From the NCBI GenBank assembly GCA_951406725.2, contig OX597818.1, forward strand, positions 59,892,001 to 59,956,000: DNA of 64,000 nucleotides. Reading direction: 5' to 3'. This DNA comes from Octopus vulgaris. Its lineage: Eukaryota. The first letter of the stretch is position 1. Every line of letters starts with the position of its first letter. The notes beneath the pieces were generated by a model that ran no database searches, had not been told where the DNA came from, and saw nothing but the letters and a program-made list of their open reading frames with translations. Shown piece by piece: positions 3,290 to 56,704 of this stretch. A program made the position numbers and the translations under genes.

Positions 3290-3546
3290 TAATACATTAC
3301 TTACATTATTTATATTTGACGGATATTTGTCCGCATTTTGTTTGTTGTTAACACAACGTTTCGGCTGATATACCCCCCGGCCTTCATCAGGTGTCTTGGG
3401 GAAATTTCTAACCTGGCTTCTCATTCCTAAAATATATTTCAATGTTATTATTGTTATTATTATTATAATTATCATCATCATCATCATCATCATCATCATT
3501 ATTATTTTTGTTGTTATTATTATTATTATCATTATTATTGTTGTTG

Positions 3547-3610
<64 letters not shown>

Positions 3611-3614
3611 CATA

Positions 3615-3665
<51 letters not shown>

Positions 3666-3858
3666 CAGGTCACTGCGTGGAATAAAACTCGGATTCTTGG
3701 GCTTAATAGCCTGCGCTCTTAAACATTACCCCATATGCCCGTGGGTATATCAGACGAAACGTTGTGTTAACAAAAAACTACATGAGAACAAATATCGGTC
3801 AAATGTAAATAATGTAAACAATGTACATAATTCCTCATCTCTTAAATATAGAACTGTA
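3290..3858 (-). mobile_element. Non-autonomous PLE-like element: tRNA-like head, (AAT)n, hammerhead and tail, plus an inverted partial copy of the 3' end
   Basis: Minus strand: degenerate tRNA-like head 3738-3664, (AAT/GAT)n 3663-3444, hammerhead 3394-3351. Plus strand 3743-3858 repeats the 3' half (GAAACGTTGTGTTAAC...GTCAAATGTAAATAATGT) in inverted orientation. Confidence 0.7.
3351..3394 (-). ncRNA. Minimal type I hammerhead ribozyme
   Basis: Minus strand ACAC-CTGATGA-A-GGC...GCC-GAAAC-GTT-GTGT. Stem I ACAC/GTGT, stem II GGC/GCC, minimal palindromic stem III ACGT. Confidence 0.8.
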
Positions 3859-4171
3859 TTTCCTTTCCTCCGCCATATTTATGATTCTTTCTTTCTCATT
3901 CTGTAGCATTCCTTTACTCATTGCCTGCCCCCAAGCCTAATATCGTTTTATACTTTTACTTTCTTTACTTGTTTCGGTTATTTGACTGCGGCCATGCAGA
4001 AGCACCGCCTTAAGTCGAGGACTTATTCTTTGTAAGCCTAGTACTTATTCTATCAGTGTCTTTTGCCGAACCGCTAGATTATGGGGATGTAAACACACCA
4101 GTATTGGTTGTCAAGCAATGTTGGAAGAACAAACACACACACAGGCAAGCATATACACACTCATACACACG

Positions 4172-4397
4172 TCGAGTTGGCAGAATCGTTAGGACGCCGG
4201 GCGAAATTCTTAGCGGTATTCCGTCTGCCGTTACATTCTGAGTTCAAATTCCGCCGAGGTCGACTTTGCCTTTCGTCCTTTCGGGGTCAATTAAATAAGT
4301 ACCAGTTACGCACAGGAGTCGACGTAATCGACTTAATAACTATGTCTGTCCTTGTTTCTCCCCCCTATGTTTAGCACCCTGTGGGCAATAAAGAAAT
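4172..4397 (+). mobile_element. SINE family B monomer
   Basis: CGAGTTGGCAGAATCGTTAG head, B-box-like GAGTTCAAATTCC, core GTCGACTTTGCCTTTC...GGGGTCAATTAAATAAGTACCAG, tail AAAGAAATA. Confidence 0.9.
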
Positions 4398-4408
4398 ATA
4401 TGCACATT

Positions 4409-4446
<38 letters not shown>

Positions 4447-4448
4447 CG

Positions 4449-5030
<582 letters not shown>

Positions 5031-6953: not shown

Positions 6954-7034
6954 AAATATATTTGTGCACAATAATATGTAGGGTCTCTTAACATTGACTA
7001 TTTAAAGAGTAGCTTTTTTATTAAAAAAATATAT

Positions 7035-7386
7035 GGTGCAGGAGTGGCTATGTGGTAAGTAACTTGCTTACCAGCCACATGGTTCCGGATTCAGTCCCAC
7101 TACGTGGCACCTTGAGAAAGTTTCTTCTACTATAGCCTCGGGCAGACCAAAGACTTGTGAGTGGGTTTGTTAGACAGAAGCTGAAAGAAGACCGTCGGGT
7201 CAGCATTCCTCTCCCCATCATCACTTGATAACCGATGTTGGTGTGTTTACATCCTCGTAACTTACGACAAAGCGAACGTTAGACTAAGTACTAGGCTTAC
7301 AAACAATATGTCCTGGGGTTGATTTGTTCGACTAAAGGTGATGCTCTAGCATTGTTGCTATCAAATGACTGAAATAAATAAAAGAA
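7035..7386 (+). mobile_element. SINE family A lacking the internal microsatellite
   Basis: Head and tail match family A; the (TA/TG) tract is absent at ~7198. Confidence 0.85.
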
Positions 7387-11031: not shown

Positions 11032-11463
11032 GGCGTCGAACTGGCAGAAACGTTAGCCACGCCGGGTGAAATGCGTAGCCGTATTTCGTCTGCCGTTACG
11101 TTCTGAGTTCAAATTCCGTCGAGGTCGACTTTGCCTTTCATTATTTCGGGGTCGATTAAATAAGTACCAGTTACGCACAGGGGTCGATATAATCGACTTA
11201 ATCCGTTTGTCTGTCCTTATTTGTTCCCTCTGTATTTAGCCCCTTGAGGGTAGTAAAAAACTAGGTATTTCGTCTGCCGCTACGTTCTGAGTTCAAATTC
11301 CGCCGAAGTCGACTTTGCCTTTCATCCTTTCGGGATCGATTAAATAAGTACCAGTTACACACTGGTGTTGATATAATCGACTTAATCACTTTGTCTGTCC
11401 TTGTTTGTCCTCCCTATGTTTAGCCCCTTGTGGGTAGTAAAGAAACAGGTATTACGTCTGCCA
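11032..11463 (+). mobile_element. SINE family B dimer plus start of a third unit
   Basis: Head, two units, then GTATTACGTCTGCC. Confidence 0.9.
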
Positions 11464-11713
11464 CTATAATAATATAAATAATAATATAAATAACGTTTAC
11501 CCACACGTAGACACTGATGAACATCCTCCTGTGCAATTTTACGCTACCCACACAATGCCTTATTCGCACAACCACAAAGCCACAGACTACTCTTTTCATC
11601 CCCATCATTCGTTAATACCCAGAACATAAAATTACAAGCAATTACTCAGCCACCTCACATTACGTCGACTCACACATTTCCATGCCTAAACACGTGTCAC
11701 GCTTGCGAAAATC

Positions 11714-18143: not shown

Positions 18144-18290
18144 CCTCAACAGAGTTCGATGTAACAAGAAGTTACAGAAGATGAATGGTGAAATATTTTG
18201 TGAAAAATACATGAGTAAAACAGCTAAAGTAAGGAAAAACATAACATTACATAATTGACACAGTTATAAAATACAAATTAACACTAGTTA

Positions 18291-18676
18291 AGGCGTAGGA
18301 GTGGTTGTGTGCACCAGCCACATGGTTCCGGGTTCAGTCCCACTGCGTGGCACCTTGGGAAAGTGTCTTCTACTATAGCCTCGGGCCGACCAAAGCATTG
18401 TGAGTGGATTTGGTAGACGGAAGCTGAAAGAAGCTCGTCATATATATGTATATATATATTTGTGTGTATATGTTTGTGTGTCTCTGTTTGTCCCGCGAAC
18501 ATCGCTTCACAAACGATGCTGGTGTGTTTACGTCCCTGTAACTTAGAGGTTCAGCAAAAGTGACCGATAAAATAAGGACTAGGCTTACAAAGAATAAGTC
18601 CTGGGGGTCGAGTTGCTCGACTAAAGGCGGTGCTCCAGCATGGCCACAGTCAAATGACTGAAACTAATAAAAGAGT
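18291..18676 (+). mobile_element. SINE family A
   Basis: Matches family A head, internal microsatellite and tail. Confidence 0.9.
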
Positions 18677-23545: not shown

Positions 23546-23758
23546 TCATTCTCTGTCTCTTGTCAAAAGACTGCAGTTTCGAAAAGTCTTCTCTCAAACC
23601 TACTTTTCAGTTACAAACTAAATTTATTTGGTTTCTATTCCGGTTTGTTTTTGCTGATTTTCTTTCTTTTGTTTTATTTATTCATTTCTTTATATAATAT
23701 TTTGCTCATGAAATCTCTTGGAAATATAACTACTCACATTATACTGGATCAAATTATA

Positions 23759-24353
23759 GCGGTGAGCTGGCAGTAACGTTAGCGCGCCGGGCGAAATGCT
23801 TAGCCGTATTTCGTCTGCCGTTATGTTCTGAGTTCAAATTCCGCCGAGGTCGACTTTGCCTTTCATCCTTTCGGGGTCGATTAAATAAGTACCAGTTACG
23901 CACTGGCGTCGATGTAATCGACTTAATCCGTTTGTCTGTCCTTGTTTGTCCTCTCTGTGTTTAGCCCCTTGTGGGTAGTAAAGAAGTAGGTATTACGTCT
24001 GCCGTTACGTTCTGAGTTCAAATCCGCCGAGGTCGACTTTTCCTTTCATCCTTTCGGGGTCGATAAATTAAGTACCAGTTTCGCATTGGGGTCGATATAA
24101 TCGACTTAATCCGTTTGTCGTTGTTTGTCCTCTCTGCCTTTAGCCCCTTGTGGGTAATAAAGAAATAGGTATTTCGTCTGTCGTTACGTTCTGAGTTCAA
24201 ATTCCGCCGAGGTCGACTTTGCCTTTCGTCCCTTCGGGGTCGATAAATAAAGTACCAGTTTTGCACTGGGGTCGATGTAATCGACTTAATCTCTTTGTCT
24301 GTCCTTCTCTGTCCCCTCTATGTTTAGCCCCCTTGTGGGGCAGTAAAGAAATA
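23759..24353 (+). mobile_element. SINE family B trimer
   Basis: Units start at 23806, 23990 and 24169; TSD TACTGGATCAAATT. Confidence 0.92.
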
Positions 24354-24913
24354 TATACTGGATCAAATTTTTATTATTTCTATAATATATTAGAGGGCAA
24401 CAGCCCCATTCTCAAACAAGGCAGTTTCATCATCTCGTGTGATCGCTCATATCATTCTGTTTGTGCAATGACCTCAAAGTTCGAAGGTTGCGAAGCAATA
24501 TTCCGTATTCTCTCCCCATCTTGATCATTGTAAAGCGGTGAATTGAGTTAAAAGCCTTCTTGAAGTCAATAGAAGTCAGGAAATCAGAAAGGTTACCATT
24601 CTTTGCACGTTCAGCATCACATCAACTAGAAATTTGTATTATTTCACTCCTTGAATTATATTATCGCCACCCTCTTCCCTTTTATTGCTCATATCATTCC
24701 CATCTCCGTCTGAAATATATAAGATTAATGTATTCCTAGATATCTGAAACGATAAAATCCGAACAAAACTATGATAGTGTGCATTGGCAAAGAACTTGTG
24801 CGCTGGAATGAATTGTGTAAATACATTTGTGTGAATAAAAACAAAAAGAAAAAGAAAAATGTTGGCGACCGGTTTGCTTGATCAAGTTGAATTTGAGTTG
24901 ATCAGCAACAACA

Positions 24914-32420: not shown

Positions 32421-32744
32421 TAATAAATTAATGCGTTGAATGCAATTCTGGTTATGAAAGGCATGAGTTATTGAATATATCCATGACACACATACAGATA
32501 ATCATACACCACACACAATTTGTCTTCCCGCTCAATGAATAAACGTAAAACGCCATAGAACATGGAGCTGAAATATCTTCAGCAGACGGCAATGAGATTA
32601 TAGCGGCCTCACTAAAAACTCCTTCGATAAATGTTTCACTGAACACTTGTACTCTGTCAGATATATACACAAGCAAAGCAGGGCCCCCTCTATCTCAATT
32701 AAACTGGATGTCAGAGTATATATTAAATAAAAAATATTAACATA

Positions 32745-33157
32745 GGCGCAGGTGTGACTGTGTGGTAAGTAGATTGCTTACCAACCACATGGGTCCGTGT
32801 TCAGTCCCACTGCGTGGCACCTTGGGTAAGTGCCTTCTACTATAGCCTCGGGCCGACCAAAGCCTTGTAAGTGGATTTGGTAGACGGAAACTGAAAGAAG
32901 CCCGTCGTATATATATATATATATATATGCGTGTGTATGTTTGTGTGTCCGTGTTTGTCCCTCTAGCATTGCTTGACAACCGATGCTGGTGTGTTTATGT
33001 CCCCGTCACTTAGCGGTTCGCCAAAAGAGTCCGATAGAATCAGTACTAAGCTTACAAAGAGTAAGTCCCGGAGTCGATTTGCTCGACTAAAGACGGTGCT
33101 CCAACATGGCCGCTGTCAAATGACTGAAACAAGTAAAAGAGTAAAAGAGTAAAGAGT
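32745..33157 (+). mobile_element. SINE family A
   Basis: Family A head to tail. Confidence 0.92.
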
Positions 33158-43116: not shown

Positions 43117-43731
43117 TTAATTTGGTCTCTAAAGGAACATATTAAACAATACATTTTGGAATGGAAAATTCTATCTAGATCCTTCCCATATGACAAGGGT
43201 AAATCTTTTTATCCGCTCTGTAATGAAGAGCTATTTTTCATCCTTTTCTCAAAGAATACTTAATAATAAATTAATTTGGTCTCTAAAGGAACATATTAAA
43301 CAATACATTTTGGAATGGAAAATTCTATCTAGATCCTTCCCATATGACAAGGGTAAATCTTTTTATCCGCTCTGTAATGAAGAGCTATTTTTCATCCTTT
43401 TCTCAAAGAATACTTAATTAATAATAAATTAATTTGGTCTCTAAAGGAACATATTAAACAATACATCTTGGAATGGAAAATTCTATCTAGATCCTTCCCA
43501 TATGACAAAGGTAAATCTTTTTATCCGCTCTGTAATGAAGAGCTATTTTTCATCCTTTTCACAAAGAATACTTAATTAATAATAAATTAATTTGGTCTCT
43601 AAAGGAACATATTAAACAATACATTTTGGAATGGAAAATTCTATCTAGATCCTTCCCATATGACAAAGGTAAATCTTTTTATCCGCTCTGTAATGAAGAG
43701 CTATTTTTCATCCTTTTCTCAAAGAATACTC
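43117..43731. repeat. Four-copy tandem repeat (154-158 bp) inside the Penelope fragment
   Basis: Units start TTAATTTGGTCTCT at 43117, 43271, 43429 and 43587; near-identical. Confidence 0.95.
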
Positions 43732-48499: not shown

Positions 48500-49521
48500 T
48501 CAGAAACTTATACCGTAAAGCATTTCTCCGATGTTCCAACGATTCTGCTAATTTATTTTCATTTAATGGTTTCTAATTCTGGTCAAAGACCAGAAACATT
48601 TTAGGGAGGGTGTTAGTCGATGCTATCCATGCTAATATTTTATTTGGATTTTTCGTTGCTTTGTTTTTATCGACCGAGGAATGATGAAAATCAAAATTAA
48701 CCTCGGCAGGATTTGAACTCAGAAAGCAGAGAGCGAGAAGAAAAACGCGAAACATTTCCTCAGTTAATCGAACAGTTCTGTCAACTCGCCGCCTTAACAG
48801 AGAATATTAATAGATAGACATACAACTGAAAACATTATCTGTTAGACACATACAACTGTGAATGGCAATTTCAAAACCTAATGAGATCGACTGTTCCCCA
48901 AGGAAGATGGAATGGAATCAGAAAGTTTTTAGCAAAGGTCAATGGGAAGGATTTGGCAGCGAATTATATCACTGTCTCAAAGAAAGAATATTCATGGATT
49001 CCACAAGGACAATCGATATAAGGAAGTATGCCAAGAATGCTGAAATATATTTAAGGGGTCAGAAGTGAATCACGGTTGTTGGTTAAAGTAATCAACATAA
49101 AATTAACAATGGTTCGTATAATTTGGCTGGTTTTTAAGAAGCAGAGTAGGGAACATGCAATGCTGTACATAATGGCGGTTCTTGTTGATGTTCCTCTTGT
49201 TGCTGTTGGCTAACATTCAAGATTAGCACAATACAGTTGCAATTGATCAATTAAATCGTTTGATTGTTGTTTCGAGCCAAATCTAAGTGTCATGCAGAAA
49301 CAGGATTGAGAAAATTAAAACTGCGAATAGTTATCAAAAATATTAGGTATCTTTTTTTTTTTTTCGGGAATTCGCTACGAGATCCATTCCTGGCTACGGT
49401 TTAGTGGCCCGTATCCTTCGATGACACTAAAGGCTATGTCCGTAGAGTGAAAGCATGTGGCAGGGCCTCCCATACAGGATATATCCGAAGATAGGGGCCA
49501 GACAAATATGGACCACCACGA

Positions 49522-50122
49522 GGCGGCGAGCTGGCAGAAACGTTAGCACGCCGGGCGAAATGCGTAGCCGTATTTCGTCTGCCGTTACGTTCTGAGTTCA
49601 AATTCCGCCGAGGTCGACTTTGCCTTTCATCCTTTCGGGGTCGAACGTAGCGGCAGACTAGTTACGCACTGGGGTCGATATAAGCGACTTAATCCGTTTG
49701 TCTGTCCTTGTTTGTCCTCTCTGTGTTTGGCCCCTTGTGGGTAGTAAAGAAATATGTATTTCGTCTGCCACTTCGTTCTGAGTTCAAATTCCGCCGAGGT
49801 CGACTTTGCCTTTCATCCTTTCGGGGTCGATAAATTAAGTACCAGTTACGCACTGGGGTCGATATAATCAACTTAATCCGTTTGTCTGTTCTTGTTTGTC
49901 CTCTCTATGCTTAGCCCTTTGTGGGTAATAAAGAAATAGGTAATTCGTCTGCCGCTACGTTGTGAGTTCAAATTCCGTCGATGTCGACTTTGCCTTTCAA
50001 CCTTTCGGGGTCGATAAATTAAGTACCATTTACGCACTGGGGTCGATATAATCGACTTAATCCGTTTGTCTGTCCTTGTTTGTCCTCTCTGTGTTTAGCC
50101 CTTTGTTGGTAGTGAAGAAATA
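49522..50122 (+). mobile_element. SINE family B trimer
   Basis: Units start at 49570, 49756 and 49940; TSD AAA(T/C)ATGGACCACC. Confidence 0.92.
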
Positions 50123-50540
50123 AACATGGACCACCTCTTGCCAGAGGTAAAAGCAGTTCTGAGTACGTTCAGTTCCACTAAATAGAAAACAAAAAAAGTT
50201 ACAAATGCATCGATGACAATTCAAAACTACAAAACTTGGTTGAGGAGAGAAAAAGAAAAGACAGCCAAAGTCGGGAATAGTGGGGAAAAGTCATCGATGG
50301 CCTTGGCTCCTTAGAGAAAGAAGGGCTTCACTTAGTTTTCAGAAATATTGAACCGTTACCTTGAACAAGTCACTTGATACGTCTTACAACAGTTTCCTGT
50401 TTGACTCACTAGTTTAATTGTTGACTAGAGACTAGTTTTTACTGTTATTGTTTATCGAAAGGTTTACTGTTATCCTGCAGGATAAGGGATTTCATACTTT
50501 CCATTCCTTGTTGATAAAAGCATATAAGATTAAATTATCT

Positions 50541-50685
50541 GATACAGTTCTATATTTAAGAGATGAGGAATTATGCACATTATTTACATTTGACGGGTGA
50601 AAGCTGGAGGTATGTCAGACGAAACGTTGTGTTAACAAACAAGATGAGGACGAATATTCGTCAAATGTAAATAATGTAAATTATG
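50541..50685. mobile_element. Truncated copy of the 3290-3858 hammerhead element, two inverted 3' ends
   Basis: 50542-50596 is the reverse complement of the tail; 50597-50680 is the plus-strand 3' half (GAAACGTTGTGTTAAC). Flanked by TAAATTATCT on both sides. Confidence 0.75.
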
Positions 50686-50765
50686 TAAATTATCTAATGT
50701 CAGTTTCCAATTTTAGACTTTCGAATATGATTCAAAGTCAGGGCAAAAGGCCAGCTAAAAGTTCC

Positions 50766-55076: not shown

Positions 55077-55220
55077 AAAGCAATTAAGATTCAAGTCAGT
55101 TCTAATGAATTCACTTGAATGCGGTACTTAACTTAGATGCACCAGAAAACCATATGGTGTTAACCATACAATAATGTGGGGTGATTATAAACGAGAAAGA
55201 AGCAACAAGAATGGATTAGT

Positions 55221-55311
55221 TTTTAGTACAATTGTTTCATACAAAGACAGGCTTTATTAAAAGTTGCAAATATTGCAGCAGATAAAAGTGTCCCGTACTC
55301 ATCAGCTAAAA
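55221..55311 (-). ncRNA. Type I hammerhead ribozyme (left arm)
   Basis: Reverse complement of 56523-56613. Confidence 0.82.
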
Positions 55312-56522
55312 CACATATGAGTTCTCCAAACATCTTAGTGGGTGAGGCTACACTCATGAAGTATCGGAGATAATTTCATAAAAAGCAAATTCAGGTTGTA
55401 AACAGACTTCCAAAGTTCTTTAATGATGATGCACAGTCTTATCACAGGTTTTAAAAAAGCTTATTAGCTTCACAGAGAAAGTGAATCAATCCATAGTGTT
55501 GGTGCAAATTTCCAGAGATATGAGGAGGTATTTCATACTCACAGACGATGAATCTATCCATGGTTAATCCACAATGAGGTGGGTATAATTTCATGCTATA
55601 TGATAAGATACTTGTCACACTACTGTTCTCTTCACAAAACTGCTATGTTAGAATTTCTAAAGGCTGAAGGAATTTTGTGGAGCAAAGAAAAGAAAAGAAA
55701 AGAGAAGAAAATAAAAAAGAAAAGAAAAAAAAAAGAAAAAAGAGAAGAAAAAAAGAAAAAAGAAAAAACGCCCACATAGAGTATACTGTGACAACTGAGA
55801 GGGAAGGGGTCACAGGTAACCCCCTACACAGAAGAAGTCTCTTAAATTTGGAGACAGTCAGACTGGCTTAGAATTTGCAGGAATCTAAGAATTATAAGGA
55901 GAATATTATTTTTGACCAGTATACAGCTATTAATTGCCAATCTGACGGAGCTAAAGCAGATATGAGAATCTAAAGAGAGAACAAGGGAAGGGATAGAGGG
56001 GTCAAAGGCTATCATTAGAGGGAAATACATTAAGAGAAATAAGTGCAATACTAGAAGTAGGTCATTTAATTTATTTATTTATTACTGTTACTGTTTATAT
56101 TGTTGTTGTTACTGTCTATACATTGACAGTCAATTTTCTTTTCTTTTCTTTGCTCCACAAAATTCTTTCAGCCTTTAGAAATTCTAACATAGCAGTTTTG
56201 TGAAGAGAACAGTAGTGTGACAAGTATCTTGTCATATAGCATGAAATTATACCCACCTCATTGTGGATTAACCATGGATAGATTCATCGTCTGTGAGTAT
56301 GAAATACCTCCTCATATCTCTGGAAATTTGCACCTACACTATGGATTGATTCACTTTCTCTGTGAAGCTAATAAGCTTTTTAAAACCTGTGATAAGACTG
56401 TGCATCATCATTAAAGAACTTTGGAAGTCTGTTTACAACCTGAATTTGCTTTTTATGAAATTATCTCCGATACTTCATGAGTGTAGCCTCACCCACTAAG
56501 ATGTTTGGAGAACTCATATGTG

Positions 56523-56613
56523 TTTTAGCTGATGAGTACGGGACACTTTTATCTGCTGCAATATTTGCAACTTTTAATAAAGCCTGTCTTTGTATGAAAC
56601 AATTGTACTAAAA
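56523..56613 (+). ncRNA. Type I hammerhead ribozyme (right arm)
   Basis: TTTTAG-CTGATGA-GTAC...GTAT-GAAAC-AATT-GTA-CTAAAA. 6 bp stem I, long stem II, palindromic stem III ACAATTGT, predicted cleavage after 56607. Confidence 0.85.
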
Positions 56614-56641
56614 ACTAATCCATTCTTGTTGCTTCTTTCTC

Positions 56642-56704
<63 letters not shown>

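Follow-up and report, generated by a model that had tools for sequence, protein, structure and literature searches.

In the excerpts available of work on PAc of Anolis (PMC11167929), the Adineta Pen families (PMC3846280) and D. virilis Penelope (PMC2377424), Penelope/Poseidon-type PLEs carry a single ORF with RT plus a C-terminal GIY-YIG that starts in the pLTR, a hammerhead in the pLTR, a tail of roughly 30 nt on one end, an inverted 5' arm with a junction palindrome, a target-site duplication (TSD) of ~10 nt, and solo pLTRs. The octopus PLE reported here is alike in all of these. It differs in that its pLTR begins with a tRNA-derived head bearing A and B boxes, followed by an (AAT)n tract, in that ~4/5 of its head-bearing arms are solo with a fixed start, and in that its sense strand is free of runs of four or more T (T4-free).

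Schistosome SMalpha and Sjalpha also place a Pol III-type promoter before a hammerhead in a short dispersed repeat, yet their units are tandem and released by cleavage, carry a canonical hammerhead and encode no protein (excerpts of PMC6765202), whereas the octopus unit is part of an autonomous element and its inserted copies are uncut at the ribozyme. Animal non-LTR retrozymes are non-coding hammerhead units related to PLE pLTRs (PMC7229834; bioRxiv 10.64898/2026.07.22.740005); they differ in forming tandem arrays and circular RNAs, and a tRNA head goes unmentioned in the available parts of these sources ('tRNA' occurs 0 times in the preprint text). A small-RNA-gene-like sequence within a retroelement terminal repeat is also found in Cassandra, Helenus and Ajax, which, in the accessible part of PMC10886601, are non-autonomous LTR elements, unlike the autonomous PLE here.

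tRNA-derived SINEs share with the octopus unit a tRNA-derived head, short length and very many dispersed copies; the octopus unit is unlike them in having neither a LINE partner nor a lineage of its own. Ohshima and Okada reportedly described three octopus retroposons in 1994 as tRNA-derived SINEs. OR2 is cited as a CORE-SINE in a source available in part. The full-text literature searched (most subscription papers, Repbase and supplements lay outside its scope) holds no description of a PLE with a tRNA-derived pLTR or of the head-bearing family, and a sequence-based search for earlier findings on the element matched only unrelated poly-asparagine genes. What is new here is a PLE whose pLTR starts with a tRNA-derived head and which gives off solo copies resembling a SINE.

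The tRNA-headed hammerhead unit in the window

The window is the whole 64,000-nt stretch of Octopus vulgaris DNA that was analysed. At its first locus a tRNA-like head, an AAT array, a minimal hammerhead and an inverted 3' half all lie where the initial annotation had placed them. Numbering starts at the first G of the tRNA-like head (+1 = window position 3740, minus strand). The features of this locus and of a second one (locus 2) are as follows.

3741..3745, minus strand: pLTR 5' leader, spanning -5 to -1 and forming one half of the 5' palindrome typical of the family
3668..3740, minus strand: tRNA-Arg(ACG)-derived head, 68/79 identical to the family majority
~3733-3723 and ~3688-3679, minus strand: A box and B box, each mutated in the window copy
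~3445-3663, minus strand: internal (AAT/AAC/GAT)n tract, 73 units by TRF, of a length that varies from copy to copy
3422..3424, minus strand: ATG that opens the PLE ORF in the family majority, 5' of the hammerhead
3350..3395, minus strand: minimal type I hammerhead, read against the min-HHR features in the available part of PMC4209133
between 3355 and 3354, minus strand: predicted hammerhead cleavage in the window copy
3291..3349, minus strand: 3' segment, its terminus at the upstream (untailed) reverse-transcription start site
3743..3858, plus strand: inverted second arm, 5'-truncated, beginning in helix II and including the whole tail of roughly 30 nt, 101/116 to the majority
50543..50596, minus strand: locus 2, tailed arm, 53/54 to the majority
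50598..50684, plus strand: locus 2, arm lacking the tail and retaining the hammerhead's 3' half, 80/91 to the majority
50531..50540, plus strand: locus 2, left copy of the 10-bp TSD
50686..50695, plus strand: locus 2, right copy of the 10-bp TSD

The small palindrome through which the two arms of the first locus had been said to join is present as sequence; it is really the element's own 5' leader, which overlaps the inverted arm by a 3-nt microhomology common to both (3743-3745). The inverted and direct arms are 86.5% identical, the hammerhead carries a single mismatch in helix II, and the flanks of the pair show no visible TSD. At locus 2 the two inverted 3' ends had been correctly recognised and point outward; the 10-bp TSD around the pair had been overlooked.

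Other repeats share the window. A different, far more abundant SINE-like repeat, with an internal 184-bp unit in tandem two to three times, occupies 4146-4515, 11081-11466, 23736-24356, 49500-50239 and about 25 more places, and a third dispersed family has at least seven copies (4432-4605, 7017-7190, 18260-18604, 32727-33071 and others). The stretches 55186-55701 and 56134-56648 form a long inverted repeat that is almost perfect (100% over 272 nt and 98% over 252 nt) and has an A-rich centre, possibly a young foldback element, and 43117-43730 holds a 158-bp unit repeated 3.9 times with 98% match.

Neither ARAGORN nor Rfam called the head a tRNA, and its tRNA origin emerged only when it was aligned with tRNA from the same genome. 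Rfam found 30 tRNA loci, of which Arg(TCG) was the best match, and a pattern based on it led to the Arg(ACG) genes of the genome. The majority of 32 full heads matches the genomic tRNA-Arg(ACG) at 46/73 positions without gaps (score 65), against 8.4 ± 6.2 and a maximum of 33 in 2,000 shuffles. On this alignment the head derives from tRNA-Arg(ACG). Both boxes are present in the majority head, which has largely kept the A box and the variable loop/B box region and has lost the anticodon and the acceptor pairing. The window copy has lost two core letters of its B box and, in its A box, the second of the conserved Gs; with both boxes broken, this copy is probably not transcribed. An upstream ATG lies inside the head, with a stop two codons later. 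Elsewhere in the genome, at G000:C2:211887730-211907126, more than 25 tRNA-Arg genes are clustered, mostly ACG and many at ~207-bp spacing.

The majority hammerhead agrees with the min-HHR features listed in the available part of PMC4209133: it has the conserved core, the extra base between positions 9 and 10.1, the G10.1-C11.1 pair, a long helix II, a helix I of 4-5 bp and a palindromic 15.2-16.2. Rfam models did not detect it.

The family was searched for in the whole genome (2.8 Gb, 227 contigs). The head query gave 770 candidates, of which 40 were scored and 30 fetched. A same-strand body follows the head in 28/29 of the fetched non-window loci, and a hammerhead match does so in 25/29; in a sample anchored on the head alone, body or hammerhead lies downstream in 61/73 loci. 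Head, (AAT)n, hammerhead and tail are thus one genome-wide family with a fixed order of parts, and chance adjacency is excluded. A hammerhead 29-mer has 2,698 exact genomic matches and its reversed control 0. Three family loci fell in sixteen evenly spaced 10-kb stretches, which puts the total, as an order of magnitude only, at tens of thousands of copies. At L004, L019 and L022 the AAT tract downstream of the head is broken by other repeats, and it may be an insertion target.

The unit as the pLTR of an autonomous PLE

At four head loci a reading frame ended just upstream of the head. Using the end of that frame as the query, we fetched 30 loci; the endonuclease end runs directly into the head in 29 of them, and 5' truncation upstream is scattered. 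Among 30 loci fetched with the ORF start, part of the pLTR stands directly before the ORF in 20, and in four of these the head is present: it begins at +4 in one and at ~+37 in another, and the remaining two stand in tandem behind the ORF end of an upstream copy. L091, L252 and L254 are nearly complete. The order of the element is head, (AAT)n, ATG, hammerhead, tail, RT/GIY-YIG ORF, 30-nt UTR and head. In the majority the ORF opens at the ATG 5' of the hammerhead, and a 272-codon frame crosses the ribozyme and the tail into the ORF. The ORF matches RVT_1 (Pfam, E 2.4e-10); the GIY-YIG region has no Pfam match of its own and was recognised by eye and through near-full-length homologs, which carry RT and in some cases also PF01541. 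Because the unit stands at both sides of the ORF and the ORF starts inside it, the head-(AAT)n-hammerhead-tail unit is the pLTR, head included, of an autonomous RT + GIY-YIG PLE. We take this PLE to be of the Penelope/Poseidon type, the Poseidon clade name being a provisional one based on architecture. As in EN+ PLEs, RT and a GIY-YIG at the C terminus share a single ORF that starts inside the pLTR, pLTRs stand on both sides, and copies show an inverted 5'-truncated arm, a 30-40-nt tail on one end and a TSD. The ORF of PAc likewise starts inside its pLTR (excerpts of PMC11167929). The initial annotation had proposed mobilisation by a PLE that would share the hammerhead and the tail; such an element exists, carries the head and the AAT tract too, at both ORF ends, and supports that proposal.

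The closest protein relatives are 55-68% identical, and one at 55% (P0003) has a similar N-terminus. In P0003, P0124 and P0149 (55% identical) the peptide across the hammerhead is similar, so the ribozyme is also protein-coding in the clade. Scans of metagenomes and genomes returned only relatives of 29-49% identity, and viral contigs searched for relatives returned nothing. All 30/30 loci fetched from the same genome with a distant PLE protein belong to the head-bearing family, so that this search gave no other Poseidon-type family as a control. A GIY-YIG-like frame of a different Penelope-like family adjoins a copy of the head-bearing family in L043 (oriented 2350-2901). Eukaryote-type PLE proteins also occur in two contigs assigned to prokaryotic MAGs, L394 to a bacterial one and L395 to an archaeal one, both probably host DNA in the bins; L395 has a hammerhead-like motif downstream of the PLE protein.

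3' ends and inverted pairs

The 3' ends of inserted copies cluster at two sites ~30 nt apart, lying ~55-60 or ~85 nt beyond the predicted hammerhead cleavage site and thus both well past it. They correspond to the pair of internal RT start sites between which the PAc tail lies (excerpts of PMC11167929). The RNA ends had initially been attributed to the ribozyme, an idea that is not supported on either side, as the 3' ends lie past the cleavage site and the 5' starts are at the tRNA head instead. The ribozyme does not set the ends of inserted copies. In vitro, uncleaved RNA is the dominant PLE template, according to the available part of PMC11167929.

In the hammerhead-anchored sample exactly one arm is tailed in 49/55 inverted pairs and both arms in none; among the 49 one-tail pairs, the tail is on the longer arm in 26 and on the shorter in 23. 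Across all fetched loci, one tailed and one untailed arm are combined in 104/121 pairs, against 60 expected. The rule is broken by 17/121 pairs (9 tailless and 8 two-tailed, some of the latter possibly mis-paired neighbours). A TSD of at least 9 nt surrounds 68/121 pairs vs 1.8% of random pairings, and the subfamily letter agrees between the arms in 64/70 pairs. The inverted pairs are single insertions, and the earlier view of inverted 5' partial repeats as a PLE hallmark is borne out by the one-tail and TSD counts. A simple fold-back origin of the long inverted arm was rejected, as the tail sits on the shorter arm in 23/49 pairs, the window's pair included. We infer a single event: both cut ends of the target act as primers, each for a separate cDNA begun at a different start site, and the two cDNAs are joined head to head. 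One-sided tails, TSDs and junction palindromes have been published for single elements (PMC3846280; PMC8557442), and the formation of PLE inverted repeats is named an open question in PMC8557442; the examined passages of the PLE literature contain no count of a one-tail-per-pair rule and no such explanation.

The fixed 5' end and its possible origins

Arms were counted with a BLAST-chain parser. Among 95 arms picked by the hammerhead pattern alone, the 5' end lies in the body in 28, in the AAT tract in 20 (a class in which L136 and L167, with the head >300 nt away, are counted), within the head in 16, at the head start in 23 and in the ORF in 8. Of the 31/95 arms that reach the head start, 23 stop there within 10 nt, where ~2 would be expected (~6%, taken from the truncation rate inside the head; P ~1e-22). 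A set of 73 head-anchored arms, with a few near-duplicate loci, comprises 59 solo and 14 ORF-linked arms, and 59/73 head-bearing arms start within ~11 nt of the tRNA 5' end. Exact 25-mers number 2,494 for the head vs 724 for the UTR 39 nt upstream. In many solo arms the leader is preserved as far as about -6, beyond which come letters that can pair with the head; others begin at +1. The complementary letters appear to be a snap-back on the 5' palindrome.

Our main reading, to which we give a probability of roughly 0.6, is that the window unit is a solo pLTR of the autonomous PLE and that the tRNA-Arg(ACG)-derived head is likely an internal Pol III promoter, with the RNA starting ~6 nt upstream of the tRNA sequence. 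Judged from sequence, Pol III drive of head-bearing copies is plausible, and a Pol III start at the head would explain why most short SINE-like copies begin there. The element protein would cut AT-rich DNA with a stagger of roughly 10-13 nt, and each cut end would prime a cDNA of its own on uncleaved RNA, the untailed internal start site serving one cDNA and the tailed site the other. From priming at the 3' pLTR, ORF copies with random 5' truncation would result, and priming at the 5' pLTR or on solo-pLTR RNA would run off at the RNA 5' end to give a SINE-like copy. The two cDNAs would join head to head via microhomology, in many cases following a short snap-back at the 5' palindrome. Cleavage by the hammerhead would need a dimer or the help of a protein and would leave no mark on the ends of inserted copies. 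For PAc, the available part of PMC11167929 reports cutting and extension of both strands, an ATT preference and the use of uncleaved RNA.

A more far-reaching proposal, which we offer tentatively, is that the whole element may be Pol III-transcribed from a captured tRNA promoter, its 2.5-kb sense strand having been purged of terminators and its 5' pLTR being shed in SINE-like form by internal priming; the insertions would then record a general PLE rule, in which two cut ends each prime a cDNA, one per start site. Autonomous retrotransposons are known to use Pol II, or Pol I co-transcription in the case of R2, and uncapped Pol III RNA is a poor mRNA. The sense strand of L091 (2,574 nt) contains zero T runs of at least four, where 3.5-5.6 would be expected (P 0.004-0.03), and the majority sense strand (2,531 nt) also contains zero. 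When the element's own codons are kept, the probability of zero runs is 0.17, 0.37 and 0.77 for three pieces and ~0.05 for them together. The copies (112 kb) hold 51 T runs, scattered and none common to more than four copies, at 0.46 per kb vs 0.58 simulated from a T4-free ancestor. These unshared runs match mutation from such an ancestor; single copies with T runs include L309 (3) and L307 (2). T runs equal or exceed expectation in nine pieces of other PLEs and four LINE families of the genome, with 28 vs 22 and 33 vs 26.5 expected in other PLEs (relatives of 29-49% identity, 7/8 and 2/6 loci used, the rest being too short or too distant) and 25 vs 17 expected in the LINEs. G runs are scarce in the element too (18 vs 59). 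The T4-free sense strand is a suggestive sign of whole-element Pol III transcription (P ~0.004-0.05).

Of the competing explanations, the one that survives best, itself rather doubtful, keeps the same element and treats the tRNA head as a passenger, the fixed 5' end arising because Pol II starts there or because cDNA copied from read-through RNA snaps back on the 5' palindrome. ORF-linked copies, the tandem ones among them, have a TATA-like word ~30 nt upstream of the start, which is pyrimidine-purine, and this word is compatible with either Pol II or Pol III. Upstream of solo heads, snap-back letters are frequent, and translation of the ORF must use RNA that retains the upstream ATG. Other PLEs, with pLTRs lacking tRNA heads, have fixed pLTR 5' ends with palindromes and TATA/Inr motifs (excerpts of PMC3846280), and a LINE-like internal promoter is given for Penelope (excerpts of PMC2377424). 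However, the boundary falls at the tRNA 5' end, the A and B boxes were kept while anticodon and acceptor pairing were lost, the sense strand is T4-free, and a 4-5-bp stem would be weak for halting three in four cDNAs on a continuing template.

In three unstranded RNA-seq runs, from an organism that may not be the genome's species, the strands are equal and 77-83% of reads continue into unrelated sequence. These unstranded libraries, which are unsuited to cleavage ends, show no pile-up of molecule starts at the head or the cleavage site. Loose ends of reads fall at the head-start boundary, mirroring the DNA copies. The signal is mostly passive transcription and speaks neither for nor against Pol III.

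We consider it improbable that, as first proposed, the solo copies are an independent Pol III SINE with solo masters of its own, for whose amplification the enzyme of the PLE is borrowed. Such a SINE would fit the solo share of head-bearing arms (59/73), the longer AAT tracts of solo arms (median gap 45 nt vs 23.5 nt in ORF-linked arms) and the slightly lower divergence of solo arms (6.0% vs 6.8%). Yet when 42 ORF-linked and 95 solo arms, all 137 with a complete head and body, were compared, no diagnostic letters peculiar to solo arms emerged, as the differing columns are CpG sites or within sampling patterns. Two subfamilies, distinguished, among other places, at the free position 7 in the hammerhead's core, are both represented in the ORF-linked (17:8) and the solo arms (43:28). 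A SINE distinct from its partner is not supported, since head, AAT tract and hammerhead are shared with the autonomous PLE: the unit in its entirety belongs to that element, not to a separate non-autonomous lineage sharing only the 3' end, and in place of the A-rich or simple-repeat tail of a LINE-mobilised SINE the simple repeat is internal and copies end at two PLE-type sites. The PAc protein needs ~55-60 nt of ORF beyond the start sites (excerpts of PMC11167929), a stretch that the solo copies do not have.

It is very improbable that the element follows a retrozyme-like cycle, with circles as the template and with both RNA ends generated by the hammerhead's cleavage. The hammerhead fits the min-HHR features and the subfamilies differ at its sole free core position, but neither 5' nor 3' ends cluster at the cleavage site, the RNA-seq libraries, though unsuited to show one, have no pile-up of molecule ends there, and the 95 anchored arms are monomers or inverted pairs with few partial tandems, rather than the head-to-tail arrays of retrozymes and SMalpha. 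Chance adjacency of the parts, or random PLE 5' truncation ending at the head, is negligible: 64/95 arms do end in the body, AAT tract or inside the head, but the part order is fixed genome-wide and 23/31 arms stop within a 10-nt window.

The one-tail-per-pair rule within a TSD offers a countable prediction on the way in which inverted repeats of PLEs arise. In automated annotation the solo copies would probably be entered as an unclassified SINE. On our main reading, a tRNA-type promoter at the 5' end of a protein-coding element would blur the LINE/SINE divide and would provide a way for a SINE-like family to arise from the element that mobilises it.
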